From an uncultured Pseudomonadota bacterium (GTDB taxonomy: Bacteria; Pseudomonadota; Alphaproteobacteria; Rs-D84), in assembly GCA_947307295.1 (NCBI GenBank), contig CAMZIQ010000001.1, forward strand, positions 104,968 to 168,967: a stretch of DNA of 64,000 bases, written 5' to 3'. The notes beneath the pieces were generated by a model. It had not been told where the DNA came from, ran no database searches, and saw nothing but the letters and a program-made list of their open reading frames with translations. Of this stretch, positions 15,450-49,081 are shown piece by piece. The translations under genes and the position numbers were made by a program. Every line of letters starts with the position of its first letter. Position 1 is the first letter of the stretch.

Positions 15450-15519
15450 CATTTCATCCATATATTCTAAATTAATTCTCCCCCCAGCATAGGGGAGCGC
15501 GGCGTAGCCGGAGGGGGTT

Positions 15520-15556
15520 AAAAAAACAGCCAATTATTTGGCTGTTCTTTTATTTT
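15520..15556. terminator. Bidirectional rho-independent terminator between ccrM and the convergent secreted protein gene
   Basis: Hairpin aacagcc-aattattt-ggctgtt flanked by an A-run and a T-run. Confidence 0.55.
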
Positions 15557-15571
15557 AAACATTATACATGC

Positions 15572-17719
15572 TTATGGGTTAACAAAAGGAACCACAACAG
15601 CAGGAATTACCGGCACAGGGAATTTCTGCAACATAATAGTTTCATTTCCTACACAAGCTGTCCCAGCCTTTTTACATGCACCCGTGACATTTTCATAAAC
15701 ATCTTTGTTATGCAATGTTTTGGTCTTTAAATTGATAGTCACTTTTTCACAGTCCATCAATCTGCTGTTAAATTGACGGCAAGCCTGATGCCAAGATTCC
15801 CAATCTGTGACGACAGCCGTTGGTGACAAATAATCAGGCAAATTCAAATTCCATTTCACATAGAAATCTTTCAAAGTATCGATTGTATGTGATTTGCCAT
15901 ATCCCACAGAATTCAAACCATCGCCGACTTTGCAAGTAATATTGCTGCGTTCGACCAAAGCGGTAATTCCAGTCACAATACCACCAACACCAGCACCTGT
16001 GACAGTACCAATCGCGATACCTTTGCCAACATCTTTACCTTTGTCAGCATCAACAACTTCACCCCTGTCAACACCAGCATTCACACCGATAGTGCTTAAC
16101 AACGATCTCAGACGAGCAATCTGTCCTTGAACAACAGATGCTCTCAAGCATTGCCACTTTGGCTTACACACAGGGTCATTTTCTTTATTTATCACATTCA
16201 ACGGTTTAAACGTACAATGTTCATAAGCTTTTTTCGCATTTTCACAACCTGCTTTCACGGTAGCCTCTATACAACCTAGTTCACATCCATTTGCACCAAC
16301 ACCAATGTTAATAATACGTTCAGCTTCCCTCTGCTCAATTCCTGCATTCTTCAAAGCATCTTCACAAAGTTTCATTCTTTCTTCATAAAGCGCTATCCTG
16401 TCATACAATTGATAAATTTTTTTACACGCCTCTTCGTCTATACCAGTTTCAGTCTGTTGAAAATCAATATCTTCACATTCTATATCATCAATTTTTATTC
16501 CGGTTGTGTCATCAACTTTACCATTACAAAAATAAGTTTTTAACACTTCTGTTTTATGAAGTTTGGCAATCTTGTCCGCCAAGTTTTTACGATACGTTTC
16601 ATCTTCACAAACAGATTTGTACTTTTCTTTTTCTACTTTCTTATTATCATCAACTTTTTTATCATAAACCGCTTTACCAACCAAACCACCGACAAGCGCA
16701 CCTGCACCTGCACCAACCGGCACACTGATAAGTGCAGCAGATTTCGTTTTATTCATCAATGAAAAATCAAACAAATCTTTGTTGCAAATAAATGTGCCAC
16801 CAGATTTCTGCCATACTTCTGCAACAGAATCATCACCAAATCCCAACCATTTATTTGTAATCAAATTATCTTTGTTATATGCCGCAACACGAATTAAACA
16901 TTCAGCATTTTTCGCATCCCAACGCGCATAATGTCCGCGATTACCATCGTATCCGGTGGTATTAACCTCTACCCCCTGGGGATTGTCTTTTGTTTCTTTA
17001 CCATTATTGGCTTCGTTATACGCACCAACTTTATTTTGATATTCTGTAGCAACTTCATTAATATCTGACACAGCCGCAAACGAAGAACCATATGTATTTC
17101 TGTCCAACAACAAACATGTGTTTTCAGCCTGATTCGGAGTCAAACCAGTTTTACGCAAAACAAAGTTATAATATTCTGGTTGAATCACGCGCGAATTGAA
17201 ATCAAGCCACACATCAGGTGTTTCATTATAAACATTACGGCAATTTATACGAACTTCTTTAACACATTGGTCGACAACTGTCTGACAAAGGCTCATCCCT
17301 GTCATAATAGAATTACGAACATCTTGGTCAAACAAATCGCGCATTCCACCCTGCAAAGAGCCATTTTCCACACATCTTTGCAAATCAGCCATACACATAG
17401 CAACTGTATATTGAGAATTTTCCACACCCCCATCTGGGCAATTACTGGGCGTTGGGTGATCTGGATGGTCTGGATGATCCGGATTATTTGGATTATTTGG
17501 GTTAATAGTTGGCAAACCATTGTTCTGTCCACCATGACCGATAGTTGTCACCGCAGGATTTCCAATCGTGTTTAATGTCACAGTCGGCATAGTCGGCATA
17601 CGTGCAGAGCTGCCACCACCGTTTGAACCGGTACGACCAGTTGCAGCATTAGCGCCACAAAAAGCCCCAAAAACCGCGATACTTACCACAGATTTCCCGA
17701 ACAAATTCAATATTTTCAT
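15572..17719 (-). CDS. Large secreted cysteine-rich protein (715 aa) with a NPN/HPD repeat segment and Gly-zipper-like segments; divergent relative of the Cys-rich family
   Basis: Signal peptide MKILNLFGKSVVSIAVFGAFCGANA. NPNNPNNPDHPDHPDHP encoded by tandem DNA repeats near 17440-17500. Many Cys pairs. GAGAGALVGGLVG and GTVTGAGVGGIVTG segments. Confidence 0.6.
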   Translation of the reverse strand: MKILNLFGKSVVSIAVFGAFCGANAATGRTGSNGGGSSARMPTMPTVTLNTIGNPAVTTIGHGGQNNGLPTINPNNPNNPDHPDHPDHPTPSNCPDGGVENSQYTVAMCMADLQRCVENGSLQGGMRDLFDQDVRNSIMTGMSLCQTVVDQCVKEVRINCRNVYNETPDVWLDFNSRVIQPEYYNFVLRKTGLTPNQAENTCLLLDRNTYGSSFAAVSDINEVATEYQNKVGAYNEANNGKETKDNPQGVEVNTTGYDGNRGHYARWDAKNAECLIRVAAYNKDNLITNKWLGFGDDSVAEVWQKSGGTFICNKDLFDFSLMNKTKSAALISVPVGAGAGALVGGLVGKAVYDKKVDDNKKVEKEKYKSVCEDETYRKNLADKIAKLHKTEVLKTYFCNGKVDDTTGIKIDDIECEDIDFQQTETGIDEEACKKIYQLYDRIALYEERMKLCEDALKNAGIEQREAERIINIGVGANGCELGCIEATVKAGCENAKKAYEHCTFKPLNVINKENDPVCKPKWQCLRASVVQGQIARLRSLLSTIGVNAGVDRGEVVDADKGKDVGKGIAIGTVTGAGVGGIVTGITALVERSNITCKVGDGLNSVGYGKSHTIDTLKDFYVKWNLNLPDYLSPTAVVTDWESWHQACRQFNSRLMDCEKVTINLKTKTLHNKDVYENVTGACKKAGTACVGNETIMLQKFPVPVIPAVVVPFVNP

Positions 17720-17834
17720 AGTCTTTCCCCCAAATTCTTATAAACATATTATACCATACAAGCGATATTAAAAAAAGTTTTTTTTAACATTTTTTTAAAA
17801 AATATTTATTTTCATTAAAATTTTATTAAAAATA

Positions 17835-17862
17835 TTGACAAATCATTTTTATTGTCTATAAT
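17835..17862 (+). promoter_or_regulatory. Candidate sigma70 promoter (-35 TTGACA, 16-nt spacer, -10 TATAAT). It would place the TSS at or within 1-2 nt of the ATG at 17869, giving a leaderless mRNA
   Basis: TTGACA at 17835-17840 and TATAAT at 17857-17862. The ATG is at 17869 and there is no room for an SD. Confidence 0.35.
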
Positions 17863-17868
17863 ATCGGT

Positions 17869-18825
17869 ATGAAAAAGATTTTTGAATTTTTAAAATCGAA
17901 TCCAATTATTGTTGCTTGGACAATATGGTATTTTACTATTGTCTGGTTTATTTTGCAATTCATATTCAACTTTGACATGTTTTCTTACTATTATTGGCAC
18001 AGATTTTTTCATTCTTCCTTGCATGGTTTTGGTGGTTTTATGTTTGGCACAATCGTATACGCATCTTTGCCAATGTATATTGCTACAACAATAACAGTAT
18101 ATCGTAAAAAAGAATTTGTTATACCTGTCCCATTTTCAAAAACAGCATCTTCGATTTTTTCAAAAATATTCCCAACCAAAAACGAACCTGTACCAGAAAC
18201 AATCGCGATTGAACCAGAACCAGAAAAAACATCTGAACCAGAATACCCAGCCGATTTACCACCTGAATTACGCGTTCCTTTTAAACGCGCACTAAATCGT
18301 TTACCGCTGACATCTGGTGTATCTGCATACAATCAACCAAACATGTCTATTAAAAAAGCACTTAATCCAGAACCCGAAAAAGAAAATTCACCGATGCCTA
18401 TACCGATGGATTTTGATATTTCTGACGAAATACCAACCGATATGAACGATTCGGTGCCTACATTCACAGATATAAATTTTGACACACCTATTATGACTGA
18501 AAAAGAATTAGAAAACGACACTACAAAATATTTGAAAAAGAATAACATAGAATATGAAACTTATCGCGATTATGTCGCAACTGAAAAATTTGTGATATAC
18601 GAACATAATGACGAAGAATTTTGGGTAATGGATGGCGATTCATGGTTTGCTGCTGGAAAACAAAAAGATTCACCAATACCAGAATTATTAAATCTGGCAA
18701 AACAAAATAATTTAAAGCCTGTTATTTATCTGGCATCACAAAACATCATGGATATAGATAACACAATTAAAAACTTTGAATCAATGGGTATTCATGTTAT
18801 AAAAAAACTGGATGAATTAGTCTAA
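17869..18825 (+). CDS. Hypothetical membrane protein with two N-terminal TM helices and a Pro/Glu-rich linker
   Basis: Hydrophobic segments WTIWYFTIVWFILQFIF and FGGFMFGTIVYASLPMYIATTITV. PEPEKTSEPEYP low-complexity stretch. Confidence 0.55.
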   Translation: MKKIFEFLKSNPIIVAWTIWYFTIVWFILQFIFNFDMFSYYYWHRFFHSSLHGFGGFMFGTIVYASLPMYIATTITVYRKKEFVIPVPFSKTASSIFSKIFPTKNEPVPETIAIEPEPEKTSEPEYPADLPPELRVPFKRALNRLPLTSGVSAYNQPNMSIKKALNPEPEKENSPMPIPMDFDISDEIPTDMNDSVPTFTDINFDTPIMTEKELENDTTKYLKKNNIEYETYRDYVATEKFVIYEHNDEEFWVMDGDSWFAAGKQKDSPIPELLNLAKQNNLKPVIYLASQNIMDIDNTIKNFESMGIHVIKKLDELV

Positions 18826-18881
18826 CCCAATTCATCCAGATTTAATTCATTATTCGTCAAAACTTACTGTTTTTGTAATGA

Positions 18882-21557
18882 TTATCTGGTCTGACTAGAA
18901 CTTACTGTGTTTGTAGTTCCATCACTAAAACTTACTTTTCTGTTTGTAGTCACCGGATTATCCCATTGTTTACAAGCTCTTTTATCTGGATCACCAGCGC
19001 GACGAGTTTTTAAACAATTAGTTATAGTTCTGGTGACAATACAAGCATTCTGTGTTGCTTCGTATCTAGACACTACAACTGCCTTGTAATTCCAATCCTC
19101 AATATTTTTATTCATCGCTTCGCAATATTCTTTCTTAGATTGGTCATTTTGTTTCGTCATTTTTGACAACGTAGTTATATCTTTATCACGTTGCGCTTCA
19201 AATTCTGACAGCTTTGTATTGTAATTAGTAATCGCTGTGTTATAAACATCATTCACAACTATTTCATGAACAAAGTTTGTTAACTTTGGAAATGTGGCAT
19301 TATTTTGTTGTGTAGATTTATTAAAGTTTGCACTATTAAATCCTTTTACTTCGCGACCTGTCATACAATATTGAACTTTTGGTTCGTTTTCAATAGAATG
19401 TATTATTCTGTCAGCAGAATCATTCAAAGAATTAACAATGTTTTTAACATTGTCATCCGCATTATTACTATATTCAAAATACCTACCACTTGAACTACTA
19501 CTCTTAGTCAAAGGATCATTAATTGTGATATATGTCCCGAAATTAACCTGTCCGCTTATAACAGGTGTATAATTTTCCTGTATTTCGCTTTCAGATACCA
19601 AAGAAGCACTATCTTTACACTGTTGTAGTTCATCTCTTTTACATACTTGATACTTCAAACTGGTGGCACCAATATTTTTATCCAACAATACGCCAGAACA
19701 AGAATCTGTGCTGCCACAAACTTTTATCATTGCTTCATTCACAGCATTTTGACACGCAGTCAGCATAGCATTATTTATCTGCAAAGCCACACCTTGGGCA
19801 ACCTGGGCAACATATGTTGTCACTGTGGTCTCTGATTTATCTTCACTCATACATGCAGTTAACTTTTCATATGGACACAATTCCGCGATATCATTTGTAT
19901 CTAAACCGATACATTCCGAATAATCTTGACCGCAAACACCTTGGATACAAGATTTTACTTCCGCTGTACAAGCATCTACCTTCATAGCTGCCAAAGTAGC
20001 CACTAACCCACTCCACAAACTAGATTTTTCTGGCTGTTCATATGTTCCGCCTGTGGCTTCTAAACACGGCTCTAATTGCACTTTACAAAAAGATTTATAA
20101 ACCAGCGGATTCGACAAACAGATATCGTAATCTGCATCATTATCACCGAATTGTGACTTACATGCCTTTTTAAAACATTCTGCTGCTGCTGGGATACAGT
20201 TAGACCGTAAATTTTGTTCAGCAATTTCTTCCGCACTTTTCAAAGCCGGCGCAGAATTATGCAAGAACGCTTTCCAAACTGCATCATTTTTGTTTGCATT
20301 CACACATTGTTTCGTCACGCTTTCACAAATTGTCTTTTTAGATAACAATTGTTCCATCGTGCTTGCCGCCAAAGTAATGTTCGCACCAGCAACTGCACCT
20401 TTGATAGTTGTTTGTTTTGCTTTTTTACCATTGCTATTACCTTTGACATTTTCTTTGGCAGCCAAAGTCACACAACCAGTAAAATCATCGCCACATTCCG
20501 CAGTAGTTTTCATACACTGTGTAAATGCAATAACACATTCACCAGTTGTTGCATATTTATTCTGATTTTGAAATTCTTCCAAAGCAGCATCACGCAAAGC
20601 CTTTTGCGCAGTCATCAACTTTTGTTGACTTTGATTTTTTTGCGCTTTTAAACTGTTTTCATAAGCAACACAATCTGATTTAATCTTTTGTGCATAAACC
20701 AATTGCAACATTGAACCATATTCTTTACATTTATTTGATATCTGATCTGCACACAGTTTTGCACTAGCCTTATACAAAGCATTACCCTTTTTATCAGCAA
20801 AACTATTAACATCAGAATCAGAACTTGCGAACAAATCATCTGCATCATTGAATATATTGTTATCCCACGCTGACAAATCTAATGTTCTGGCTTTCTTTTT
20901 GTTTTTTTCACTATTTTCCGCATTTACTGTTTCATCAGCAACACTTTTTGCACGTGCCATTACCGCTTCTGCACCTTCGCCCATTTGAATACGTTCTACG
21001 CCTTTGGTAGCCATAAGATAACTTTGTTCATCCAATTTTAAGATATCTTCCAAAACACTATCCAATTCCACGATTTTATCATTACATTGACAACGTCCAC
21101 CGTTTGCATTATCCAGCATACAAAACGCATCCATACAGCCATAAAAAGCATCCTGACATTCTTGTGGCACAGTAGTATTTTCAGTCGCTGTTGCGACCTT
21201 GGTTCCTGTTTGAATAACTTTCTGTGTAGCACCAGCACGCGCAGCCATCACTTGATTTCCACCAGCACCCTTAACCTGTGTCTGTTTTTTACCAGCACGT
21301 GCAGCAACATTGCCCGATACAGTCGCCGCCGGTTGAGAAACATTTGCATTTTGCTTTACACCAGTATTTGCAACTTTCTGTCTTGCACCAGCACGCGCAG
21401 AAACAACACCCGATGTCGCCTGAGTCGCGGTCGATGTTGTCTGGGTCGCACCAGTATTGTTACTGGTTCCGCGTTCGCCACGTACATTAGCGGCAAAAGC
21501 CCCAAAATCTGCCATACACAAAGATAAAGCAACAGCTAAAAACATACGTATACGCAT
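18882..21557 (-). CDS. Large secreted cysteine-rich protein (891 aa), paralogous family member
   Basis: Signal peptide MRIRMFLAVALSLCMADFGAFA. T/A/Q-rich linker. ECQDAFYGCMDAFCMLDNANGGRCQCNDK motif identical in pattern to the paralogs. Confidence 0.7.
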   Translation of the reverse strand: MRIRMFLAVALSLCMADFGAFAANVRGERGTSNNTGATQTTSTATQATSGVVSARAGARQKVANTGVKQNANVSQPAATVSGNVAARAGKKQTQVKGAGGNQVMAARAGATQKVIQTGTKVATATENTTVPQECQDAFYGCMDAFCMLDNANGGRCQCNDKIVELDSVLEDILKLDEQSYLMATKGVERIQMGEGAEAVMARAKSVADETVNAENSEKNKKKARTLDLSAWDNNIFNDADDLFASSDSDVNSFADKKGNALYKASAKLCADQISNKCKEYGSMLQLVYAQKIKSDCVAYENSLKAQKNQSQQKLMTAQKALRDAALEEFQNQNKYATTGECVIAFTQCMKTTAECGDDFTGCVTLAAKENVKGNSNGKKAKQTTIKGAVAGANITLAASTMEQLLSKKTICESVTKQCVNANKNDAVWKAFLHNSAPALKSAEEIAEQNLRSNCIPAAAECFKKACKSQFGDNDADYDICLSNPLVYKSFCKVQLEPCLEATGGTYEQPEKSSLWSGLVATLAAMKVDACTAEVKSCIQGVCGQDYSECIGLDTNDIAELCPYEKLTACMSEDKSETTVTTYVAQVAQGVALQINNAMLTACQNAVNEAMIKVCGSTDSCSGVLLDKNIGATSLKYQVCKRDELQQCKDSASLVSESEIQENYTPVISGQVNFGTYITINDPLTKSSSSSGRYFEYSNNADDNVKNIVNSLNDSADRIIHSIENEPKVQYCMTGREVKGFNSANFNKSTQQNNATFPKLTNFVHEIVVNDVYNTAITNYNTKLSEFEAQRDKDITTLSKMTKQNDQSKKEYCEAMNKNIEDWNYKAVVVSRYEATQNACIVTRTITNCLKTRRAGDPDKRACKQWDNPVTTNRKVSFSDGTTNTVSSSQTR

Positions 21558-21583
21558 AAAAATCTCCTTAATCCTATGAATTT

Positions 21584-21612
21584 ATTATATCACAAATAAA
21601 GACCGTTCACAA
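21584..21612 (-). promoter_or_regulatory. Candidate promoter for the 18882-21557 gene (-35 TTGTGA, 17-nt spacer, -10 TATAAT; strong RBS AAGGAG upstream of the ATG)
   Basis: On the minus strand, TTGTGAacggtctttatttgtgaTATAAT, followed by AAGGAGattttt ATG. Confidence 0.35.
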
Positions 21613-21682
21613 ATAAATATCTTGAAAAATCTAAATTCTTTTTCCGTTAACATTTTTTCTCCTTTTTGTCATCAAACTAAAA

Positions 21683-21722
21683 ACCGTTCGGCACGCCATC
21701 GCGTCCGAACGGTTAAAAATCC
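21683..21722 (-). terminator. Rho-independent terminator on the minus strand
   Basis: Long imperfect hairpin aaccgttcgg...ccgaacggtt followed by a T-run on the minus strand. Confidence 0.5.
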
Positions 21723-21770
21723 ATGTAAAACAAATCGGAACGATTTGTTTTAGACCCGGCAAAAACTACC

Positions 21771-21792
21771 TGTGTGTGTGTGTGTGTGTGTG
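21771..21792. repeat. (TG)11 dinucleotide microsatellite
   Basis: tgtgtgtgtgtgtgtgtgtgtg read directly in the sequence. Confidence 0.9.
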
Positions 21793-21899
21793 TAGAAAAC
21801 TGCGGGTTTCAGCCGATTCATAGTTTTTCTTCCTTTTTCTTTATGGGAATATTATACCAAATTTTCATACGAAATAAAAGTTATTTATTTTATATTCTT

Positions 21900-22335
21900 A
21901 GTCTTGCTTGTCATTGCAAAGGAGCGAAAGCGACTGCGGCAATCCATCCGCTTTCGCTTACGCTACAGCGAGATTGCGCCAGCAAGCGAAGATGCGTCGC
22001 TGTGTCATTGCGAGAATGGACAATCGACAGTAAGCTTTGCGTCTGTCGTTGTCCGTTCGTGGCAATCCAGGTCTTATTATGTGTTTTGCGTTCCGCAAAA
22101 CTACTTTTTTTATTCACCTGGATGCTCACGCTCGTTAACACTCGCTCAGCATGACATAGTGTGTGTTTGATTTACCCGAAGTCGCGCCGTAGCCTTGGCA
22201 AAGGCGGATGGATGCTCACGCTCGTTAACACTCGCTCAGCATGACATGGTCCTTTGGGTCCCATCCCCCAAGGGGGAGAATTTAAAGTTCCCCTCCGATG
22301 GAGGGGTGGCACGAAGTGACGGGGTGGTCTTTATT
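21900..22335. ncRNA. GC-rich, highly palindromic intergenic block. Candidate structured RNA or repeat element; strand and identity unknown
   Basis: GC content is clearly above the flanks. Perfect inverted repeats (agcgaaagcg/cgctttcgct; cccccaaggggg; cccctccgatggagggg). A 39-bp direct repeat ggatgctcacgctcgttaacactcgctcagcatgacat occurs twice, 89 bp apart. No ORF with a plausible product. Confidence 0.2.
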
Positions 22336-22437: not shown

Positions 22438-23004
22438 TTATTTTCCAGTTGCACGACGTTTAACAGCAACCGCTTTTTTTGCACCTGTTGCTTTTGGCGC
22501 AGCAGCTTTCTTTTCAGCAGCAACTTTCGTTGTTTTTGTAGTCTTTTCTGCCTTTGGAGCTTTTACTGCTTTTTCTTCTTTTGCCACAGGTTCTGTTGTT
22601 TCAGCAGCAACTGTTTTTGGTGCGACTTTCTTTGCATTTTCATCTCTGTCAACCAATTCGATAATCGCCATTGGTGCAGCGTCACCATAACGGAATCCAG
22701 CCTTTAACACGCGTGTATAACCGCCAGGACGTTTTGCATAACGTGGTCCCAAAACTGCGAACAATTTTTTAACTGTTTTATCAGAATTGTTTCCCAATTC
22801 AGATGCAGTCAAACGACGATTTGCAACTGTATCAACTTTTGCGCGAGTAATCAATTTTTCGACTACACTGCGTAAATCTTTTGCTTTTGGCAAAGTTGTT
22901 TTAATTTGTTCTTTTTCAATCAAATTTTTCGCCAAACCAGTAAACAAGGCTTTTCTGGCATTTGTGTCGCGATTGAATGTACGACCTGCTAATCTATGTC
23001 TCAT
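22438..23004 (-). CDS. rplQ: 50S ribosomal protein L17 with a Lys/Ala-rich C-terminal extension
   Basis: L17 core [21 protein letters not shown]...[10 protein letters not shown], then about 60 aa of an AKKAAAPK-type tail. Confidence 0.9.
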
Positions 23005-23221
23005 TGATTACTCCTTTTGTTTTCTGCCCCGATTCGTTTCGGGGATTTTTGAGACTCGGTGTCCTGAAAATAATTTTTCTCCAGCAACACGATTTTTTGA
23101 CAATCTCCTAGCGGTGCAAGAAAATTGTCAGAACATGCCAATTGGAAGTGTTTGGTGGTTTGCGGTGTAGTAAACCTACATAAGAACCGCCAAACACAAC
23201 TAATGGCGTGTTATCACAATT

Positions 23222-24250
23222 TTATTTGTATGGGTCTTCGTATTTCTTGGCCAATTCCGCAATATTTTCTGGTGGCCAACCTGGTACTTCCATACCCAAA
23301 GACAATCCCATAGCTTCTAATTGAGCCTTGATTTCATTCAAAGACTTACGACCAAAGTTAGGTGTTTTTAACATATCGTTTTCAGTCTTTTGAACCAATT
23401 CGCCCAACCAATTAATTTTATCATTTTTCAAACAATTTGTTGCACGAACAGACAATTCCAATTCATCAACATGCTTTAACAATTTTGGATCGAATGGCAA
23501 AACATCTTTTGCTTTTTCTTCTTCGCTTGTTGCGCTTATTTGAGTTGGATCTTCAAAATTGATAAACACAGTCAATTGATCTGTCAAAATACGTGCAGCA
23601 AAAGCAATCGCATCTTCTGGTGTGACTGAACCATTTGTTTTAACAGTCAATTCCAATTTATCATAATCTGTGCTTTGACCAACACGAGTTTGTGAAACAT
23701 TTGATGCCACATTCAAAATAGGAGAATAAATTGAATCAACTGGGATTGTTCCCAAAGGCAAATCTGCTGCGTTAACAGTAGCTGGAACATAACCACGACC
23801 AGAAGCCAATGTAATTTCCATATCCAAAGATGCACCGTTATCCAAAGTGCAAATTTCTGCATCTTTGTTCATAACTTCAACACTACCACTTGTTTCAATC
23901 ATACCAGCAGTCACAACTGCAGGACCTTTGACCTTTAACGTTGCTTTGTGTTGACCTTCGGTTAAAGCTTTGAAATAAACACCTTTTAAATTCAAGATGA
24001 TATCTGTGACGTCTTCACGAACCCCAGCCAAACTGCTAAATTCATGTTGAACACCATCAATTTTTACATAAATAGGCGCACAACCTTGTAAAGAAGACAA
24101 CAGAACACGACGCAATGCCGTTCCCAAAGTTAAACCAAAACCCTTTTCCAAAGGTTCAGCGATTAAAGTTGCAATATTAGGATTATTTTCATCGACTTTG
24201 ATATTCAACTTTTTAGGCTTAATCAAAGTCATCCAGTTTTTTTCAATCAT
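23222..24250 (-). CDS. rpoA: DNA-directed RNA polymerase subunit alpha
   Basis: 342 aa with conserved N-terminal dimerisation domain and alpha-CTD ([13 protein letters not shown]). Confidence 0.95.
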
Positions 24251-24363
24251 TTTTATACTCCATCAGGCTTAGTTTATTATTTTCACCAGATTACGCGCTT
24301 TGCCCGCGCGCCCGCAGATTTTATAACAAAAAATTTTGAAAGTCAATGATTTTTAATGCAAAA

Positions 24364-25479
24364 CTACTCTGAACGTGAACGCGAAACTACTCTGCTATTT
24401 ATGCGCCCCTGATTCAAACATGCTGGAAATTCACTAGGATTTCCTTCGCCAATTACAAACTTTATTTTGCCTTTTATACACACAGATGCTTGGGGATTAT
24501 ACGCAGTTCCAGGACCTTCTGTTGTATATCCAGGCGCACACCCGCTACATGTTTCTTGACCTGCCCTGGAAAAAGTTCCCTGTGGACATATCTCTATACC
24601 ATATATATAAGAACCAAGAAAATCAGCATCACAAGCTTGAACATGATGATCATTACCATACGGACACATATATCCTGCTGTACATTCACGACATGTACTG
24701 CCATCCATACAATGTCCCGGTGGACATGACGTACACGCACTTTGCCCACCCGAAATATTTATAGAATCATCCGGACAATTTTTACACCAATCTGAATTTG
24801 CATCTTCTGGCGCTTCAACATAAACATAACTCATTGGTGAAACAGATACGCTGTTTCCTTCTTCCTGCACCCAGGTACTAGTATTACCATCATAATGCCA
24901 TTTAACAGAAATTTCGCCATTACATTTTGTTGTTCCTTGCTGGTTTAATTCGATTCCACATTGGGAAATTCCGGTATAATCAGCAAAACGATAAGGTCGA
25001 TACAATTCTGCATCATAACCCTCTGTCGGACAAGCCTTACATTCAGCTCCATCCAAATATTGTCCGGCGACCGTACATGGCACACATGCTGTTCGTTCTT
25101 CGTTGGAATATGTACCCTGAGGACAAGCATCACACTCTGTGGCACCGGAATTTTCAGCATAATAGCCAGTCTCACAAGGCAAACATTCCGATGCGCCTGA
25201 ATTTGATGAAAAAGTACCAGCTGAGCAAGATTGCCTTTCACCATTGGAACAAAAATATCCTGGCTCACAATCAACACATGTCTCGTCCGATGATGACCAA
25301 TACTGTCCCTGGGGACATTGATTTTCAGGGGTATTATATACACCACCATACAAAAATTCATCAAACTGATCTGCTGGAATTTCATAATCAGATGTTCCGC
25401 CCAAATCACAATACGCAACACGACTGAACATCATGCAAATCAAACCCACGCAAAAAAACAATGATTTTTTTAATATCAT
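24364..25479 (-). CDS. Secreted cysteine-rich repeat protein (CXXC/GxY repeats, furin-like or VSP-like) inserted between rpsK and rpoA. The track uses a TTG start at 25488; an ATG at 25479 gives MILKKSLFFCVGLICMMFS
   Basis: Signal peptide, then repeated units such as CVDCEPGYFCSNGERQSC, CLPCETGYYAENSGATEC and CDACPQGTYSNEERTAC. Confidence 0.6.
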   Translation of the reverse strand: MILKKSLFFCVGLICMMFSRVAYCDLGGTSDYEIPADQFDEFLYGGVYNTPENQCPQGQYWSSSDETCVDCEPGYFCSNGERQSCSAGTFSSNSGASECLPCETGYYAENSGATECDACPQGTYSNEERTACVPCTVAGQYLDGAECKACPTEGYDAELYRPYRFADYTGISQCGIELNQQGTTKCNGEISVKWHYDGNTSTWVQEEGNSVSVSPMSYVYVEAPEDANSDWCKNCPDDSINISGGQSACTSCPPGHCMDGSTCRECTAGYMCPYGNDHHVQACDADFLGSYIYGIEICPQGTFSRAGQETCSGCAPGYTTEGPGTAYNPQASVCIKGKIKFVIGEGNPSEFPACLNQGRINSRVVSRSRSE

Positions 25480-25552
25480 TTCTTTCAAACTGCCTTTCAG
25501 ACTTTATTTTATCAATTTTAAGGTTTATTAGCAATTTAAAAATTATTTCAAT

Positions 25553-25590
25553 CACAAAAAAACACCACCAAAACTGGTGGCGTTTTAATA
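25553..25590 (-). terminator. Rho-independent terminator on the minus strand directly after rpsK
   Basis: ccacca-aaac-tggtgg hairpin followed by T7 on the minus strand. Confidence 0.5.
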
Positions 25591-25604
25591 TATCATGCAA
25601 ATTA

Positions 25605-25988
25605 TTACACACGACGTACTTTCTTTGGACGGCACCCGTTGTGTGGAATACGTGTCGTGTCTGTAATAGATTGAACTACCAATCCTGCATTTGCCAAACC
25701 ACGAACAGCAGATTCACGACCCTGACCAATACCGCGCATCAAAACATCAACTGTCTGCATACCCATTTCAGCAACTTTTTTGCCAACTGCATCAGCTACT
25801 ACGGTTGCAGCATATGGTGTTGATTTTTTTGCACCTTTGAAATTATTAGCCCCTGCGGTTGCCCATGTCAAAACTGCACCGCTTTGGTCTGTGATTGTTA
25901 TACGTGTATTATTATTAGTTGCAACCACATGAGCAATACCATGTGATACTTTTTTAACAACTTTCTTTTTTGATTTAGTTACTGCCAT
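25605..25988 (-). CDS. rpsK: 30S ribosomal protein S11
   Basis: Conserved S11 sequence (HVVATNNNTRITITD...GMQTVDVLMRGIGQGRESAVRGL). Confidence 0.95.
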   Translation of the reverse strand: MAVTKSKKKVVKKVSHGIAHVVATNNNTRITITDQSGAVLTWATAGANNFKGAKKSTPYAATVVADAVGKKVAEMGMQTVDVLMRGIGQGRESAVRGLANAGLVVQSITDTTRIPHNGCRPKKVRRV

Positions 25989-26052: not shown

Positions 26053-26430
26053 TTATTTACCCTTAGTCGCAGATCCAGCAACAACAACGCGCTTACCCTT
26101 ACGAGTTCTAGCGTTTGTTTGAGTGCGTTGACCACGAACTGGTAAACGGTTACGATGACGAACACCGCGATATGTTTTTAAATCTTGCAAACGTTTAATA
26201 TTCATTGCAACTTCGCGACGAACATCACCTTCTACTTTGAAGTTTTGTTCAATATAATTTGAAATTCTGATAACATCTTCGTCAGTCAAATCTTTTGCAC
26301 GCAGACCGTCTTTCAATTTCAATGCAGAACAAATCTGTGCAGATTTAGCTGGTCCAATACCGTGAATATAACGCAAAGCGATTTCAATGCGTTTTTCTGA
26401 CGGGATGTTAACACCTGCTATACGTGCCAT
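26053..26430 (-). CDS. rpsM: 30S ribosomal protein S13
   Basis: [26 protein letters not shown]. Confidence 0.95.
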
Positions 26431-26613
26431 CTTTTATTTTCCTTTTTTTCTTGTCCCACGAAGCCTTGGCGAAGTGGGATGATTTTATTTATTCGGATGT
26501 TTCCATCCACCCTGCATCCAAAATCCACACGTTTTTTGAATGCGTATCGATTTTTGCCGAAAAACATTTTATTATGCAAGACAACAAAAATCAAATTTTT
26601 ATTTTGTTTTCGC

Positions 26614-27933
26614 TTAACCGCGGAAACGACTACCTTTTTTGGCGTTCTTGTTCACAACACCGGTATATTGCTTTTCCACCAAATAAGACCTTATTTGATT
26701 CATAGTATCAAGCACCACACCAGCAACGATTAAGACGCTTGTTCCACCAATCATCAATGGCATACCACCACGAGTATTCAAAATGATTGGCAATACACAA
26801 ACTACAATCAAATATACCACACCAATCGCAGTCGTTCTGGATACAACACCATCCAGATAATGCATGGTTTGTTCACCAGGACGAACACCCGGGATATATC
26901 CACCCATGTTCTTTAAATTATTGCTTGTTTCTTCGCTGTTAAATACAACCGCCGTTTGAAAATAAGCAAAGAATGCGATTAAGAAAGTATACAATATCAT
27001 ATAAGACCATGTGCCATATGTGAAAAAGCCCAAAATATTTTGTACTGTCAAATTGTCACTTTGCACAAAACGTTGTATAAACGCTGGCAACATCATAATA
27101 GATGCAGCAAACACAGGTCCCATAACCCCAGACATATTAACCTTTATCGGCAAATAAGAAACATTGGTATTCATAACGCCATTTGCCAAAGCCTGACGAG
27201 GATAAAGTATTTGGATACGACGTTGAGCCTGTTCCATAAAAGCTATCAAGGCAATTATACCGATTACAAAACCCAAAACCATCGCAATCATCGCAGGTGA
27301 CATTTGACCAACACCTGCCAACGAGAATAATTTAGCAATTCCACCAGGAACCTCCGCAATAATACCTGCGAAAATTAAAAGCGAAGCACCCTGCCCTATA
27401 CCACGAGCAGTAATTTGTTCTGCCAACCACATAACAAACACAGTTCCACCAACCAGCGCAACTATCGCAGATAATTCAAACGAAAATCCAGGATTTGCAA
27501 CCGCTGCGACACCATTGACCGGTGCCATAGATTCCAGACTGCGTACAATCGCCCAACCTTGAACCACAGCCAACAACACCGCCAAATAACGTGTGTATTG
27601 ATTGATTTTGATTCGACCAGATTCACCCTCTTTGCGCAAATCAGTCAAAGATTTGCTGGTAGCTGTCAACAACTGCAACACGATTGATGCCGAGATATAA
27701 GGGAAAATATTTAATGCCAACACCGACATACGTGATAATGATCCACCAGAAAACATATCGAACATTCCCATCATACCATTGTCACCATTAAACAAGTGCA
27801 AAACCGCACTTGCATTAACACCTGGTAATGGGATAAACGAACCGATACGATAAACAATCAACGCGCCCAATGTAAACATTATGCGTTTTTGTAAATCCGT
27901 CAGATTGCCAAAAATATTCTTCAAAAATTTCAT
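26614..27933 (-). CDS. secY: Preprotein translocase subunit SecY
   Basis: 439-aa polytopic membrane protein with SecY blocks (GIMPYISASI, LQLLT). Confidence 0.95.
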   Translation of the reverse strand: MKFLKNIFGNLTDLQKRIMFTLGALIVYRIGSFIPLPGVNASAVLHLFNGDNGMMGMFDMFSGGSLSRMSVLALNIFPYISASIVLQLLTATSKSLTDLRKEGESGRIKINQYTRYLAVLLAVVQGWAIVRSLESMAPVNGVAAVANPGFSFELSAIVALVGGTVFVMWLAEQITARGIGQGASLLIFAGIIAEVPGGIAKLFSLAGVGQMSPAMIAMVLGFVIGIIALIAFMEQAQRRIQILYPRQALANGVMNTNVSYLPIKVNMSGVMGPVFAASIMMLPAFIQRFVQSDNLTVQNILGFFTYGTWSYMILYTFLIAFFAYFQTAVVFNSEETSNNLKNMGGYIPGVRPGEQTMHYLDGVVSRTTAIGVVYLIVVCVLPIILNTRGGMPLMIGGTSVLIVAGVVLDTMNQIRSYLVEKQYTGVVNKNAKKGSRFRG

Positions 27934-45282: not shown

Positions 45283-46119
45283 ATGAACACCGAATTAAGT
45301 CTAAGTTTTAAAATAACAAACTGGTGCAATTTGCGTTGCGCCCATTGTTGTGAATACAGCGGTCCAAGCGAACCCGCAACCTTTTTACCTTTGGAAAAAA
45401 TAGAACAATACACTATTGAATCTATCCATATGCCAATCAAGCCAAACGACTATTTAGTCTTAGGTGGCGGGGAAGCAATGGCGCCATATATGCACAACAA
45501 ACCAGATTATATCCCGAAAGCTCTTGATATCATTTATAGATACGGATATGTTCCGACAATCAAAACGAATGGTACATGGGGTGATAATGATGCCAAGCGC
45601 GAACAGATATTACACGATATAGCAAAACCTGCTTATGAATACCAAAAATTAGTCACACTGGATATTTCTATTGATGAATTTCATAACAATATTAGTGGTG
45701 TATCAAAAATTATTTACAACATATTAAGCAATCCAGATTTATGTTTAGCAATCAGATGTTGCATCGTTGGGTTTAACACCAAAAAATCAGCCATTGCATT
45801 AAGCAAATTAAAACAAATGTTGCAAAACCAAGGGCTTAAAATTTCCCCTATAAATTATTCTGATTGGATTGTGTTTACACCAAACGGTGACGCCGTCTAT
45901 TTAGTTGTTGATTATTCTGCTGGGATACATGATTTAGGTCGTGCAAAAGATAAAAAAGTTTATACATCTACTGGCAAACCTACTGGTGCAATAAGTTGTC
46001 TGCAAATTGATAACAACGATATGGCTATTTATAACTATCTGACAAAAGAACCTGTTAATAACCGCCCATTAAACGAAGTTTTGTTTTCTTTGATGAGCAA
46101 GCAAATAAAGGGTTATTAA
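45283..46119 (+). CDS. Radical SAM domain protein (278 aa)
   Basis: CNLRCAHC CX3CX2C cluster motif near the N-terminus and GGGEAM (GGE-type SAM-binding) motif. Confidence 0.6.
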   Translation: MNTELSLSFKITNWCNLRCAHCCEYSGPSEPATFLPLEKIEQYTIESIHMPIKPNDYLVLGGGEAMAPYMHNKPDYIPKALDIIYRYGYVPTIKTNGTWGDNDAKREQILHDIAKPAYEYQKLVTLDISIDEFHNNISGVSKIIYNILSNPDLCLAIRCCIVGFNTKKSAIALSKLKQMLQNQGLKISPINYSDWIVFTPNGDAVYLVVDYSAGIHDLGRAKDKKVYTSTGKPTGAISCLQIDNNDMAIYNYLTKEPVNNRPLNEVLFSLMSKQIKGY

Positions 46120-46120
46120 T

Positions 46121-47305
46121 ATGTCAGAACAGATTCAAGATATTTTTTCTGAAAGTGCCGAATTTGGAACCGAAATTTTTTCACATTCAAAAGATGGAAA
46201 TTATAATTTAAATGGTCGTCCTTTGATGGAAGGTTCTATAACTGGTCGCATATCAACTTTGTCCGAAGTATTCGTTGAATGGTATTTATTTGATTCATCC
46301 GTTGAAAAAAATATAGAAACTTTTTTACAAAACGAAGATTTAACTGATGTTTTCACAGAATCAGAATTTATGGATTTAATGTGCGGTTATGCCTTTGTAG
46401 ATAACAAATTACTTGAATTGATTACATTAAAATTACCATATCGTTTAGATACTAACAAATTAAAACACCTAAATTTTTCTTTACCTGGCACAAATCCAAG
46501 TGCACATTTGATAACAAGCAACGAAACAACTGATGAAAAAATAAAAAATTTATCACAATTAAAATCACAACAACAAAAAGACCACCAGCGTCAATATCGT
46601 GAAACTCACAGAGAACATATATCACAACGAAAACACAAATATTATAAAGAAAATCGTGAAAAAATATATGAAAAACAAAAAATATATATACAAAAACATT
46701 TAGCTGAACTCAAAGAATATCAAGCCAAATATAGAGCTGAACATGCCGCAGAATTAAAAGAATATTTTAAACAATATCGCAAAAAAAATGCAGTTGTTGT
46801 ATCCGAACGCAAAAAGAAATGTTATAACGCAAAAAAAGAACAATATTTGCGCAAAAACAAAGAAAATTACAAAAAAAACAAAGAACGACACCTAAGCAAG
46901 TGCAAAGAATATTATGAAAAAAATAAAGAACAATACCTAAGCAAGTGCAAAGAATATTATGAAAAAAATAAAGAACACCACCTTGCACAATCAAAAATAT
47001 ATAATCAGAAATTAAAACAAAAAGCCGAAGTTGCAAAAACTGTATGTGCAGCATATGTATTCTTATTAAACTTGCGCAAAACAAATAAAGAATTATATCT
47101 GCAACTGTACACTAAACGACAAGAACCATTGACCGGCATGCTTAAAACATGTGTTGCCTTACAAAATATGGATATAAATATGTGTCCGTTGTGTAATGAA
47201 AATTGTGAACATTTGCTCGAAAAATGTTGTAATCAAAAAGTCTTAGCCATTCCTAATGTACTTCAAGAATTACATGCCATAGCAGAACAATTAAAACAAA
47301 GATAA
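46121..47305 (+). CDS. Hypothetical Lys/Glu/Tyr-rich repeat protein with a Cys-rich C-terminus. Translationally coupled to the radical SAM gene
   Basis: Start is 2 nt after the radical SAM stop. Internal perfect 45-bp tandem duplication encoding LSKCKEYYEKNKEQY twice. C-terminal CPLCNENCEHLLEKCC. Confidence 0.55.
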   Translation: MSEQIQDIFSESAEFGTEIFSHSKDGNYNLNGRPLMEGSITGRISTLSEVFVEWYLFDSSVEKNIETFLQNEDLTDVFTESEFMDLMCGYAFVDNKLLELITLKLPYRLDTNKLKHLNFSLPGTNPSAHLITSNETTDEKIKNLSQLKSQQQKDHQRQYRETHREHISQRKHKYYKENREKIYEKQKIYIQKHLAELKEYQAKYRAEHAAELKEYFKQYRKKNAVVVSERKKKCYNAKKEQYLRKNKENYKKNKERHLSKCKEYYEKNKEQYLSKCKEYYEKNKEHHLAQSKIYNQKLKQKAEVAKTVCAAYVFLLNLRKTNKELYLQLYTKRQEPLTGMLKTCVALQNMDINMCPLCNENCEHLLEKCCNQKVLAIPNVLQELHAIAEQLKQR

Positions 47306-47308
47306 AAA

Positions 47309-49081
47309 TTATTTCTTGCGTGTCTGCATTTGCCAAAGTTTACTATATGCGCCACCTTTGCGTAATAATTGTTTGTGTGTCCCTGTTTCGACAATTTTAC
47401 CATTTTTAATAACAACTATTCTATCCATATTTGCAAGCGTAGATAATCTGTGTGCTATTACCAAAGTTGTTTTACCGCGCATAGCAATTTTTAAAGATTT
47501 TTGAATTAACATCTCGTTTTCTGAATCCAATGCAGAAGTTGCTTCATCCATTACTAAAATCGGAGCATCTTTTAACAAAGCGCGTGCAATAGAAATTCTT
47601 TGACGCTGCCCACCAGATAATTTTATACCATTGTTTCCAATTATCGTATTATAACCTTTTGGTAATTTAGATATAAAATCGTGTATATGTGCTTTCTTTG
47701 CAACATCAATAACTTGTGATTTAGTTGCATTAGGCTTTGCATATCTTATATTTTCCAAAATTGTTCTGTTGAACAAAGTGGCCTCTTGTGGAACAAAAGA
47801 AATACTTTTCCGCAAAGAATCTTGAGTCACATCACGTATATCTATATCATTGATTTCAACAGCCCCTTTATCAACATCATACATGCGCAACAATAGATTA
47901 CACAACGTAGTTTTGCCAGCACCAGACAAACCAACAATACCGACTTTTTCAGAATTATTTATCTTTAAATTAAAATCTTTAAAAACCTTATTATTCCCAT
48001 AAGCAAAATCAACAGATTTGAAAGAAATCACCGCTTTGTCTATTGATAAACGTTTTGCATTTTCCTTATCATTTATAAGTTTGTCCGCAATCACAACAGA
48101 ATAAGCTTTGGTTGCACGAGCACGAAAAATAGAATATCTTTGCAATCCTTTATTTATCTTATCAAAAGAATTATTTATAGAATACGATGCAGACATAACA
48201 AACGCAGCATCTGATAAAGTCATACTGCCGTTTCTAATAAAAATAAAACATAATGCTAATCCTATCAATCTGGTACAAACCCATAAAATACGCACGGGGA
48301 TTCCTTGTAATCTTTCTAAAAAGAAACGTTGTCTTATTAATTCAATTAACCTGTCTCGTCCTTTATAAATATACATATTTTCGTATTCGTCGGCAGCAAA
48401 CAATTTTACAGTCAATGCATTATTTAAACTATCGCTTCTTAATCCCGAATATTTAGAACTTTCTTCCATTTCTTCTTGGTTATTTTTCTTAATCTTTTTC
48501 TGCAACAACCATTCCCAAACAAGTTTTAATACACCGTATGTCAACAAAACCACAACCAACCAAATATTCATAACGGCCATAGAAGCAACTATAATTAAGA
48601 ATCCTAAAACAGTTCCGATAAACTCTGACCAAAAATCTCTCATTAAAAAATCTAACTTCCCAGAAACCTCAATACACATAGACATAACCTGTCCACTTGG
48701 GTTATTTATAAAAAAATGTGAATCATTCTCATAAACCCTTTTATAAAGGATATATAATTTATATCTGTTAAATATCTGCTGATATTTACCCTTTATAACA
48801 GATATAAAGAAATTTAAAAACGTAGTAAAACTATACAAACAAACAATCAATATAAACAACCTAAAAACAATATGCCAATCAGTTGAAATCGCATTTTCAA
48901 ATATTTGTATCATCCACTTTGATACCCATGGGTCAAACATCATATTAATAACATTACCCAAAAGGCCACAAACAAACACAGCCCAAAAATACCAAGGAAA
49001 CTTCTTAATACACAGCCAATAAAAACCGTATAAATTTTTCGGGAAATCAATCGATTTCATAATACAATCCTTTGTACGCAC
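47309..49081 (-). CDS. ABC transporter, fused permease/ATP-binding exporter (MsbA/type I exporter-like)
   Basis: Six N-terminal TM segments. Walker A GLSGAGKTT, signature LSGGQRQR, Walker B ILVMDEATSALD. Confidence 0.85.
   Translation of the reverse strand: MRTKDCIMKSIDFPKNLYGFYWLCIKKFPWYFWAVFVCGLLGNVINMMFDPWVSKWMIQIFENAISTDWHIVFRLFILIVCLYSFTTFLNFFISVIKGKYQQIFNRYKLYILYKRVYENDSHFFINNPSGQVMSMCIEVSGKLDFLMRDFWSEFIGTVLGFLIIVASMAVMNIWLVVVLLTYGVLKLVWEWLLQKKIKKNNQEEMEESSKYSGLRSDSLNNALTVKLFAADEYENMYIYKGRDRLIELIRQRFFLERLQGIPVRILWVCTRLIGLALCFIFIRNGSMTLSDAAFVMSASYSINNSFDKINKGLQRYSIFRARATKAYSVVIADKLINDKENAKRLSIDKAVISFKSVDFAYGNNKVFKDFNLKINNSEKVGIVGLSGAGKTTLCNLLLRMYDVDKGAVEINDIDIRDVTQDSLRKSISFVPQEATLFNRTILENIRYAKPNATKSQVIDVAKKAHIHDFISKLPKGYNTIIGNNGIKLSGGQRQRISIARALLKDAPILVMDEATSALDSENEMLIQKSLKIAMRGKTTLVIAHRLSTLANMDRIVVIKNGKIVETGTHKQLLRKGGAYSKLWQMQTRKK

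Follow-up and report, generated by a model that had tools for sequence, protein, structure and literature searches.

The 64-kb stretch of DNA analysed here (the window, from whose first letter all positions are counted) comes from the chromosome of a Candidatus Enterousia-like alphaproteobacterium (order Rs-D84). It carries, between the gene for ribosomal protein S11 (rpsK) and that for the α-subunit of RNA polymerase (rpoA), a gene for a cysteine-rich protein of 374 amino acids. We consider it probable, at roughly 60%, that this protein is exported, stiffened by disulfides and active at the surface or in contact with a partner, that it is under diversifying pressure, and that its gene occupies an old, insulated and variable slot of the α ribosomal operon. 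The window was compared with 80 species-level genomes whose RpoA is 65–96% identical to its own (loci are cited by L numbers). Relatives with RpoA identities of ≥83% were metagenome-assembled genomes from the gut of ruminants, horse, chicken, human and termites; the names attached to them are Candidatus Enterousia, Alphaproteobacteria or 'Rickettsiales'. A contig from an ENA metagenome (L001) encodes an RpoA identical to that of the window and has flanks that are 99.4–99.5% identical. Members of Enterousia/Rs-D84 have been described as rod-shaped bacteria with genomes of <1 Mb that lack the tricarboxylic acid cycle, respiration and most biosynthetic pathways, and obligate symbiosis or parasitism, with metabolites drawn from other cells, was proposed for them (PMC12306168). 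The papers found on Enterousia mention just 'hypothetical membrane-bound proteins'.

The cysteine-rich protein and its family

The gene is located on the minus strand (24364..25488, stop codon 24364-24366) and, as the preliminary description of this DNA had reported, encodes a protein with a signal-peptide-like N-terminus and cysteine repeats between rpsK and rpoA. Translation from the TTG codon at 25488 gives 374 amino acids, and that from the ATG codon at 25479 gives 371. A Shine-Dalgarno-like GAAAGG (25493..25498, minus) is placed 4 nt ahead of the TTG codon, and GAAAGG with a TTG or GTG start is laid out in the same way in L004, L005, L011, L012 and L029; thus, the TTG start is the likelier one. 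The product contains 32 cysteines (8.6%, versus 0–3% in most proteins of the window) and nine CxxC motifs, four of which conform to C-x2-C-x2-3-G-x-[YF] and are spaced by 11–17 residues.

The N-terminus (MKEMILKKSLFFCVGLICMMFSRVAYC, followed by DLGG; 25408..25488, minus), as read from the sequence, consists of MKEMILKK-SLFFCVGLICMMF-SRVAYC and then D, i.e. an n-region with basic residues, then 13 hydrophobic residues as the core, and a small residue at −1/−3. By this layout it reads as a Sec signal peptide, and homologues share the n/h/c arrangement together with an AY[AC]|D motif. A lipoprotein reading was rejected, as VAYC does not fit a lipobox. The part downstream of the signal peptide includes two cysteine-rich modules that enclose a cysteine-poor segment, all on the minus strand. 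Module 1 (25030..25317, residues 55-150 of the 371-aa form) comprises five CxxC units and was modelled by AlphaFold2 (AF2) at a predicted local distance difference test score (pLDDT) of 50–85. The cysteine-poor, β-rich central segment (24787..25029) carries the family-conserved motifs YN..LY, CG, VKW and W, with AF2 strands at pLDDT 61–85. Module 2 (24478..24786) again has CxxC units, with CP(A/P)G(Y/H)C (CPPGHC in the window) and CPxGxFS..GQ..C..C..GYTT. It is followed by a family-conserved, nonhydrophobic C-terminal tail (24367..24477) with the pattern IC.K..IK..-FP..L.QG.IN.RV. The protein ends in FPACLNQGRINSRVVSRSRSE and shows no hydrophobic stretch at its C-terminus.

A Pfam scan assigned module 1 to Ephrin_rec_like (PF07699) with 53.2 bits versus a cut-off of 23.1 (E = 2.6e-14), next to weaker overlapping matches to TNFR_ELAPOR1_6th, NCD3G and TNFR_c6; eight of 15 cysteine-rich slot proteins of relatives also matched Ephrin_rec_like. 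The likeness to furin-like or variant surface proteins (VSPs) that had been suggested earlier is thus retained at the superfamily level, while the VSP (PF03302) and Furin-like (PF00757) profiles themselves gave no match in the Pfam scan (E up to 1). Searches of NCBIfam and PADLOC with the protein were likewise without matches. An exhaustive HMMER search returned 6763 matches, led by giant repeat proteins of 2000–8000 residues that align to residues 53-152 between 20 and 46 times each; the single giant repeat match with a source label derives from the eukaryote Paulinella micropora. In a sequence search of the PDB, only Mst1 from Chlamydomonas was found (E = 9e-13), in the region of module 2. 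Structure prediction with a mixed alignment that included the eukaryote-like matches was unusable (pLDDT 46), and a family-only alignment was used instead, giving pLDDT 67, a predicted template modelling score (pTM) of 0.39 and 188 residues at ≥70. The predicted model has an elongated β-hairpin fold of the disulfide-ladder type, and its top Foldseek match was again Mst1 (E = 5e-6). Repeats and predicted fold together identify the modules, at the level of a model, as Ephrin-receptor-like/TNFR-like cysteine-rich domains of the type found in ELAPOR1, EphA2 and Mst1. The usual eukaryotic setting of the repeat is exemplified by L082 (ENA ERZ28548055), a 441-kb contig of eukaryotic appearance in which a distant match (P0005) lies among several Ephrin_rec_like open reading frames (ORFs) and beside a zf-MYND protein.

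All members of the RpoA clade to which the window belongs (L001-L008, L011, L012, L029) have a co-oriented, signal-peptide-like cysteine-rich ORF in the slot (6.9–9.8% cysteine, 102–974 amino acids), and its frame is intact in every genome examined. The exhaustive HMMER search yielded approximately 11 full-length homologues with 33–42% identity (cluster representatives), and a metagenome scan with a narrower family alignment found 10 loci. Members are 30–42% identical to one another and share 23 invariant and 26 nearly invariant alignment columns, mostly cysteine, glycine and aromatic residues. The shared architecture runs from the signal peptide through an optional N-terminal extension, the first CxxC module and the cysteine-poor β segment to the second CxxC module and the tail, with the consensus CPAGYC and CPKGxFS..GQ..C..CA.GYTT in module 2 and IC.KI.IKLK....FP..L.QG.IN..V in the tail. 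Every member with a readable context is located directly 3' of rpsK (window, L001, L003, L083/84, L085, L086, L087/88, L089, L091/92, L094). One protein, P0107 (L085), had appeared to be a paralogue beside mnmE; this was rejected, as tblastn placed rpsK directly upstream, i.e. in the same slot with a rearranged rpoA side. No second family copy was present in the 64-kb window or in any locus read. From these sequences, the gene is best described as a fast-evolving positional orthologue within one clade.

The cysteine-rich proteins are only 26–42% identical between genomes in which RpoA is 94–97% identical, and 26–37% in the comparisons that also give 98–99% for S11. For the pair of the window and L001, the proportions of synonymous (pS) and nonsynonymous (pN) differences were 0.019 and 0.001 for the 15 upstream genes (dN/dS ~0.05) and 0.022 and 0 for rpoA (dN/dS 0), versus 0.048 and 0.046 for the cysteine-rich gene (dN/dS 0.97). 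Its pS is unexceptional, with similar values for secY and rplQ; thus, the excess divergence arises at the protein level and not from local hypermutation. Three in-frame indels (12, 2 and 2 amino acids) separate the two proteins, in which 32 of 32 cysteines are kept. The family therefore evolves far faster than its neighbours, with all scaffold cysteines retained.

A dN/dS of 0.97 in the sole close pair, the spread of lengths from 102 to 974 amino acids within the clade and the lack of a known function would also be compatible with a decaying, functionless remnant that drifts neutrally in a permissive intergenic space. We regard such decay as highly unlikely: no frame is broken in any genome examined, the indels between the window and L001 preserve both frame and cysteines, and the invariant and near-invariant columns and the tail persist at only 30–42% family identity. 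In agreement, the streamlined genomes of Enterousia are reported to show no accumulation of pseudogenes (PMC12306168).

The rpsK–rpoA slot and the age of the operon split

The minus strand of the window carries the end of the S10-spc-α ribosomal cluster. It contains secY (26614..27933), rpsM (26053..26430), rpsK (25605..25988; Pfam Ribosomal_S11, E = 9e-38), rpoA (23222..24250, with three RpoA domains) and rplQ (22438..23004), so that the α-operon order rpsM-rpsK-rpoA-rplQ is kept on one strand and without rpsD. However, rpsK and rpoA, the upstream and downstream flanks of the slot, are not adjacent: they are 1354 bp apart, with one long co-oriented ORF, a predicted terminator and predicted promoters between them.

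The rho-independent terminator of rpsK proposed in the preliminary description was found at 25552..25586 (minus) as a hairpin (25586..25559) followed by a T-run. It has a 12-bp GC-rich stem, a folding energy of −19.1 kcal/mol and a z-score of −4.4 versus shuffled sequences, and nearly all Enterousia loci have an equivalent hairpin with T-run after rpsK. A TTGACT/TAAAAT promoter of rpoA had also been proposed, at 24290-24320; the motif does exist and is conserved in relatives, but it is located about 25 nt away at 24318..24346 (minus, TTGACT-17-TAAAAT). On its own this motif is at chance level (11 promoter-like sites versus 13 expected from shuffles). We take the promoter, which is of the σ70 type, to be real because it is conserved in approximately 70 of 76 related loci, as TTGACTTT-N17-TATAAAAT, next to upstream DNA that cannot be aligned.

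The promoter is the first of three elements in the rpoA leader region (24251-24346, minus), which has equivalents in L002-L076 and L080. The second is a hairpin, CGCGC-GGGCAAA-GCGCG (24294..24310, minus), that occurs in most loci with variable sequence and maintained pairing; among 67 sequences, four predicted pairs are upheld through 5–12 double changes. Its support is comparative only, since the minimum free energy of the single leader sequence is no better than that of shuffles (z = −0.25). The third is an invariant 22-nt box, GGTGAAAATAATAAACTAAGCC (24266..24287, minus), upstream of the Shine-Dalgarno sequence of rpoA. It recurs as GGYGAAAATRATAAACTAAGCY about 37 nt before the rpoA ATG with 17 invariant columns in 67 distinct sequences, and is present in 77 of 77 Enterousia-like loci and missing from the outgroups L077-79 and L081. 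Promoter, hairpin and box form a candidate for a new cis-regulatory leader of rpoA-rplQ.

A further leader precedes rplQ at the end of the rpoA-rplQ spacer (23005-23221, minus), with two hairpins conserved in 36 aligned loci. Hairpin 1 (at ~23046-23080) shows strong covariation, with double compensatory changes in 9 of 12 pairs, and is followed by YGTCTC, hairpin 2 (CCCYG...CRGGG), GCAGAAAC and AAAGGAGTAATC-ATG. This element may be an autoregulatory site for ribosomal protein L17. No Rfam family matches the rpoA or the rplQ leader. At the start of rpsM (26398..26482, minus), Rfam gave a weak match to Alpha_RBS (RF00140, an S4-binding leader) with 30.2 bits and E = 3.8e-4, below the gathering score of 38. 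The two conserved and apparently undescribed 5' leaders may regulate the α-subunit of RNA polymerase and L17 once these are uncoupled from the ribosomal operon.

The cysteine-rich gene has a promoter-like site of its own (TTGCTA-17-TAAAAT with a TG extension; 25506..25534, minus; 9 of 12 consensus matches), and −35/−10 pairs occupy equivalent positions in clade relatives. No terminator was found in the 17 nt between its stop codon and the rpoA promoter (−1.6 kcal/mol). This lack, and the co-orientation of the cysteine-rich slot gene with the operon across the whole clade, might be taken to mean that the position is selected and not the protein, the gene either exploiting read-through from the ribosomal operon or boosting rpoA-rplQ from its own promoter. 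That explanation appears unlikely, as the rpsK terminator is strong and conserved, many slot genes of other lineages sit on the opposite strand and rpoA retains its conserved promoter whatever lies upstream.

In the four outgroup genomes (L077-79, L081; RpoA 65–77% identical), only 27–46 bp separate rpsK from rpoA, and terminator, promoter and box are all absent. Early-branching Enterousia-like lineages have gaps of 112–202 bp, and in gaps that contain no gene (L067, 112 bp; L044, 137 bp; L013, 207 bp) terminator, promoter and leader lie back to back. In a neighbour-joining tree of RpoA, short gaps are basal (L080, L070, L059, L067) and long ones, of up to 4282 bp, are found in the crown. As the signals are present throughout the genus and even in gene-free gaps, the uncoupling of rpoA-rplQ is older than, and independent of, the cysteine-rich gene. 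By these sequence comparisons, the α operon of Enterousia is cut by a fixed pair of predicted elements, the rpsK terminator and the promoter-hairpin-box unit of rpoA.

The variability in gap size is specific to this junction. Between rpsK and rpoA, gaps range from 112 to 4282 bp (median 1489 bp) and exceed 500 bp in 42 of 48 loci, versus 4–175 bp for rpsM-rpsK (>500 bp in 0 of 43) and a median of 219 bp for rpoA-rplQ (>500 bp in 2 of 75). In 13 further loci, the 6 kb preceding rpoA did not include rpsK, which extends the range to more than 6000 bp. The ORFs of the slot fall into at least 30 clusters unrelated to one another, about two-thirds with signal-peptide-like N-termini and few with Pfam matches, and the secreted-protein gene in this place differs between almost all species. 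Among the occupants are families of large proteins with 4–5% cysteine, hydrolases, outer membrane protein-like proteins and occasionally housekeeping genes such as rpsB-tsf. The commonest neighbour of the rpoA promoter genus-wide is a family of small secreted proteins (101–172 amino acids, most ~105–140) in the slot of 25 loci (L009, L010, L014-L022, L027, L032 and others). Its members have N-termini like MKKTILSGL...ANASDGG.Y.ETETYTN, are encoded on either strand and have no match in Pfam. The rpsK-rpoA space thus presents itself, at the sequence level, as an old, insulated hypervariable slot or hotspot that ranges from empty to >4 kb. It illustrates that a gene junction among the best conserved in bacteria can turn into a lasting hotspot with a terminator on one side and a promoter on the other.

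Local recombination is supported by mosaicism between the window and L001. Despite flanks of 99.5% identity, the two differ in the sequence type of hairpin 1 in the rplQ leader, the pS of rplQ is raised, and a 6.7-kb block just beyond rplQ in the window (15497-22264) is missing from L001. The block encodes secreted, cysteine-containing proteins of 891 and 715 amino acids and a 318-aa membrane protein. In L023 and L036, homologues of the membrane protein and of the 715-aa type form a pair upstream of rpoA, in L036 with an 891-aa-like ORF before the pair. The block constitutes a second variable region, which lies beyond rpoA-rplQ as seen from the slot.

The preliminary description had suggested that insertion of the cysteine-rich gene split the operon. 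In its extended form, this view holds that a recent foreign gene, derived from a mobile element or a eukaryote, broke an intact α operon and forced rpoA to gain a promoter. The intact 27–46 bp junction of the outgroups fits this view, as do the database matches led by giant repeat proteins, the sole labelled one from Paulinella micropora, and the mainly eukaryotic distribution of the domain type: Ephrin_rec_like is said to have 'emerged in ancient eukaryotes', with rare bacterial cases ascribed to horizontal gene transfer (PMC6993872). However, the genus-wide terminator, promoter and box, which also bound gene-free gaps of 112–207 bp, contradict a split by insertion, and no genome in the clade of the window lacks a cysteine-rich occupant of the slot. 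Moreover, the G+C content of the gene (0.416) and that of its third codon positions (0.25, compared with 0.22–0.37 in the neighbours) do not stand out from those of the genes nearby. No integrase, transposase or tRNA gene was found between rpsK and rpoA, and searches for flanking direct or inverted and tandem repeats around the gene gave just short chance-level matches and weak repeats inside the gene that correspond to those of the protein. By tblastn, the protein had no match in 50,697 phage or 72,556 plasmid records. The gene is thus a resident and not a recent arrival. It is inherited in place within the clade, a finding that the preliminary description had set against its own proposal for the case of a conserved gene with a known function; here the sequence is extremely unconserved and no function is known. 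Taken as a whole, foreign insertion is very improbable; its 'recent' and 'caused the split' parts are largely refuted, whereas the domain itself could still be of ancient eukaryotic origin.

Proposed role of the cysteine-rich protein

In the scenario that we favour, in which a surface or contact protein is encoded in the insulated slot, the gene would be transcribed from its promoter-like site at 25534..25506. As it lacks a terminator of its own, its transcripts would continue into rpoA-rplQ. The protein would be exported via the Sec system, with the signal peptide removed after AYC, and its two CxxC modules would form rigid, disulfide-laddered, protease-resistant rods on either side of a small β-rich domain. 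Envelope-bound or released, it would act outside the cytoplasm as a contact or adhesion protein or as a protective coat. Its counterpart might be the organism from which these metabolically dependent bacteria live; alternatively, pressure might come from host immunoglobulin A, proteases or phages. Such outside pressure would drive the diversification of loops and changes in repeat number. The slot probably tolerates and accumulates genes of this kind as it is transcriptionally insulated and as strains could recombine through its ultra-conserved flanks as homology arms.

Several points weigh against this role. With 9 of 12 matches, the gene's promoter-like site is weak, and it was judged solely by its position in relatives. 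Confidence in the AF2 model is moderate (pLDDT 67, pTM 0.39), and the template modelling scores of the fold matches are low. The dN/dS of ~1 derives from one close pair, in which diversifying selection and relaxed constraint are inseparable. The protein shows no membrane anchor, no lipobox and no sorting signal of a known kind, and the choice of 'surface' over 'periplasmic' or 'released' is a guess. The usual periplasmic route to disulfides is that of DsbB and quinone. This route may be missing here, as Enterousia is reported to lack respiratory chains (PMC12306168).

The last point, an anaerobe with possibly limited oxidative folding, would also suit a periplasmic metal-binding (Zn/Fe) or thiol-redox protein in which the nine CxxC motifs do not form a disulfide scaffold for contacts. 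Giardia VSPs, which are rich in CXXC motifs, have been reported to bind metals. Homology and predicted fold instead point to the disulfide-laddered extracellular domains of the Eph cysteine-rich domain (CRD), TNFR, ELAPOR1 and Mst1, and neither 26–42% identity at RpoA identities of 94–97% nor lengths of 102–974 amino acids would be expected of a housekeeping role; we consider a metal or redox function improbable.

The contact-protein reading may be extended to a slot that is a dedicated expression site for swappable surface or secreted cassettes, exchanged by homologous recombination via the flanks, with a present occupant that derives from a eukaryotic receptor and mediates partner attachment or mimicry. 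This extension is speculative and, in our estimation, rather unlikely; if true, it would represent a bacterial counterpart of protist variant-coat systems inside a core operon.

Enterousia is a widespread uncultured gut lineage, for which a fast-evolving secreted protein with receptor-type repeats is a concrete candidate for a molecule in contact with partner or host. The protein could be used for localisation (by antibody or fluorescence in situ hybridisation), pull-downs and strain typing.

Other genes of the window and comparison with known systems

The window encodes a set of paralogous large secreted proteins, comprising a partial ORF at its edge (1-600) and proteins of 730 (614-2806), 786 (3243-5603) and 891 amino acids (18882-21557). 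They contain 4–5% cysteine, have 22–36% mutual identity and are unrelated to the 374-aa protein; none received an assignment from Pfam, NCBIfam or PADLOC. The 730-aa protein shows a weak C-terminal match, below the cut-off, to class IIc bacteriocins. Adjacent genes at 45283-49081 encode a radical-SAM protein, an ABC exporter and an uncharacterised protein of 394 amino acids, and may constitute, together with the 730-aa protein, a cluster for peptide maturation and export. Two tRNA-Pro genes (anticodons GGG and CGG) and, at a distance of about 2 kb, an ORF that has the arm-binding and central domains of a phage integrase (54486-54830, 56641-57639) may mark the edge of an integrated element. Two paralogous ORFs about 40 kb apart (8774-9763 and 49123-50169; 329 and 348 amino acids, 39% identical) have no Pfam match.

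We know of no description of the cysteine-rich family, of a slot for variable genes in the α operon, or of the two leaders. Known Ephrin_rec_like/TNFR-like domains, as in ELAPOR1, the CRD of EphA2/EphB2, the CRD of CaSR and taste receptors, and 4-1BB, belong to the ectodomains of eukaryotic receptors with ligand-binding, transmembrane and kinase or G-protein-coupled receptor modules. In contrast, the protein of the window is a stand-alone bacterial protein of 374 amino acids with a Sec-signal-like N-terminus, a central β segment and tail of its own, and no transmembrane segment. Mst1, of the Chlamydomonas reinhardtii mastigoneme (PDB 8tx1, 8wa2, 9b4h), has extracellular cysteine-rich repeats with the same domain name. 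However, it is a glycoprotein of ~1990 residues that builds flagellar hair filaments, and the match spans just ~90 repeat residues; nothing suggests filament formation by the protein of the window.

The VSPs of Giardia, and CXXC-rich coat proteins of other protists related to them, resemble the protein in belonging to a gut dweller and in being CXXC-rich, secreted or surface-exposed and fast-diverging. At their C-terminus, Giardia VSPs carry a transmembrane helix and, after it, a conserved CRGKA tail. The protein of the window has neither the helix nor the CRGKA tail nor a VSP profile match, and whereas VSPs form a large switched family, the cysteine-rich gene is apparently a single positional gene in the window and the loci read. 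CXXC-rich VSP coats are described as resisting proteases and pH in the gut (PMC6341118). The comparison with such coats is drawn as a functional analogy only.

The canonical α operon has the order rpsM-rpsK-rpsD-rpoA-rplQ in E. coli and B. subtilis, and rpsM-rpsK-rpoA-rplQ in Alphaproteobacteria. Order and orientation are the same here, but a terminator, a variable slot and a dedicated promoter with leader stand between rpsK and rpoA, and in at least 13 Enterousia-like genomes rpoA-rplQ is no longer near rpsK. Hypervariable loci flanked by core genes are otherwise exemplified by the variable surface-protein loci of Mycoplasma, which also has small genomes. The Enterousia slot shares with them fixed flanks, a variable, lineage-specific and mostly secreted or surface-type content, and mosaicism between near-identical strains. 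It differs in that no recombinase, phase-variation repeats or silent cassettes were seen in the window, and in lying inside a ribosomal-protein/RNA-polymerase operon, bounded by a predicted terminator and promoter.

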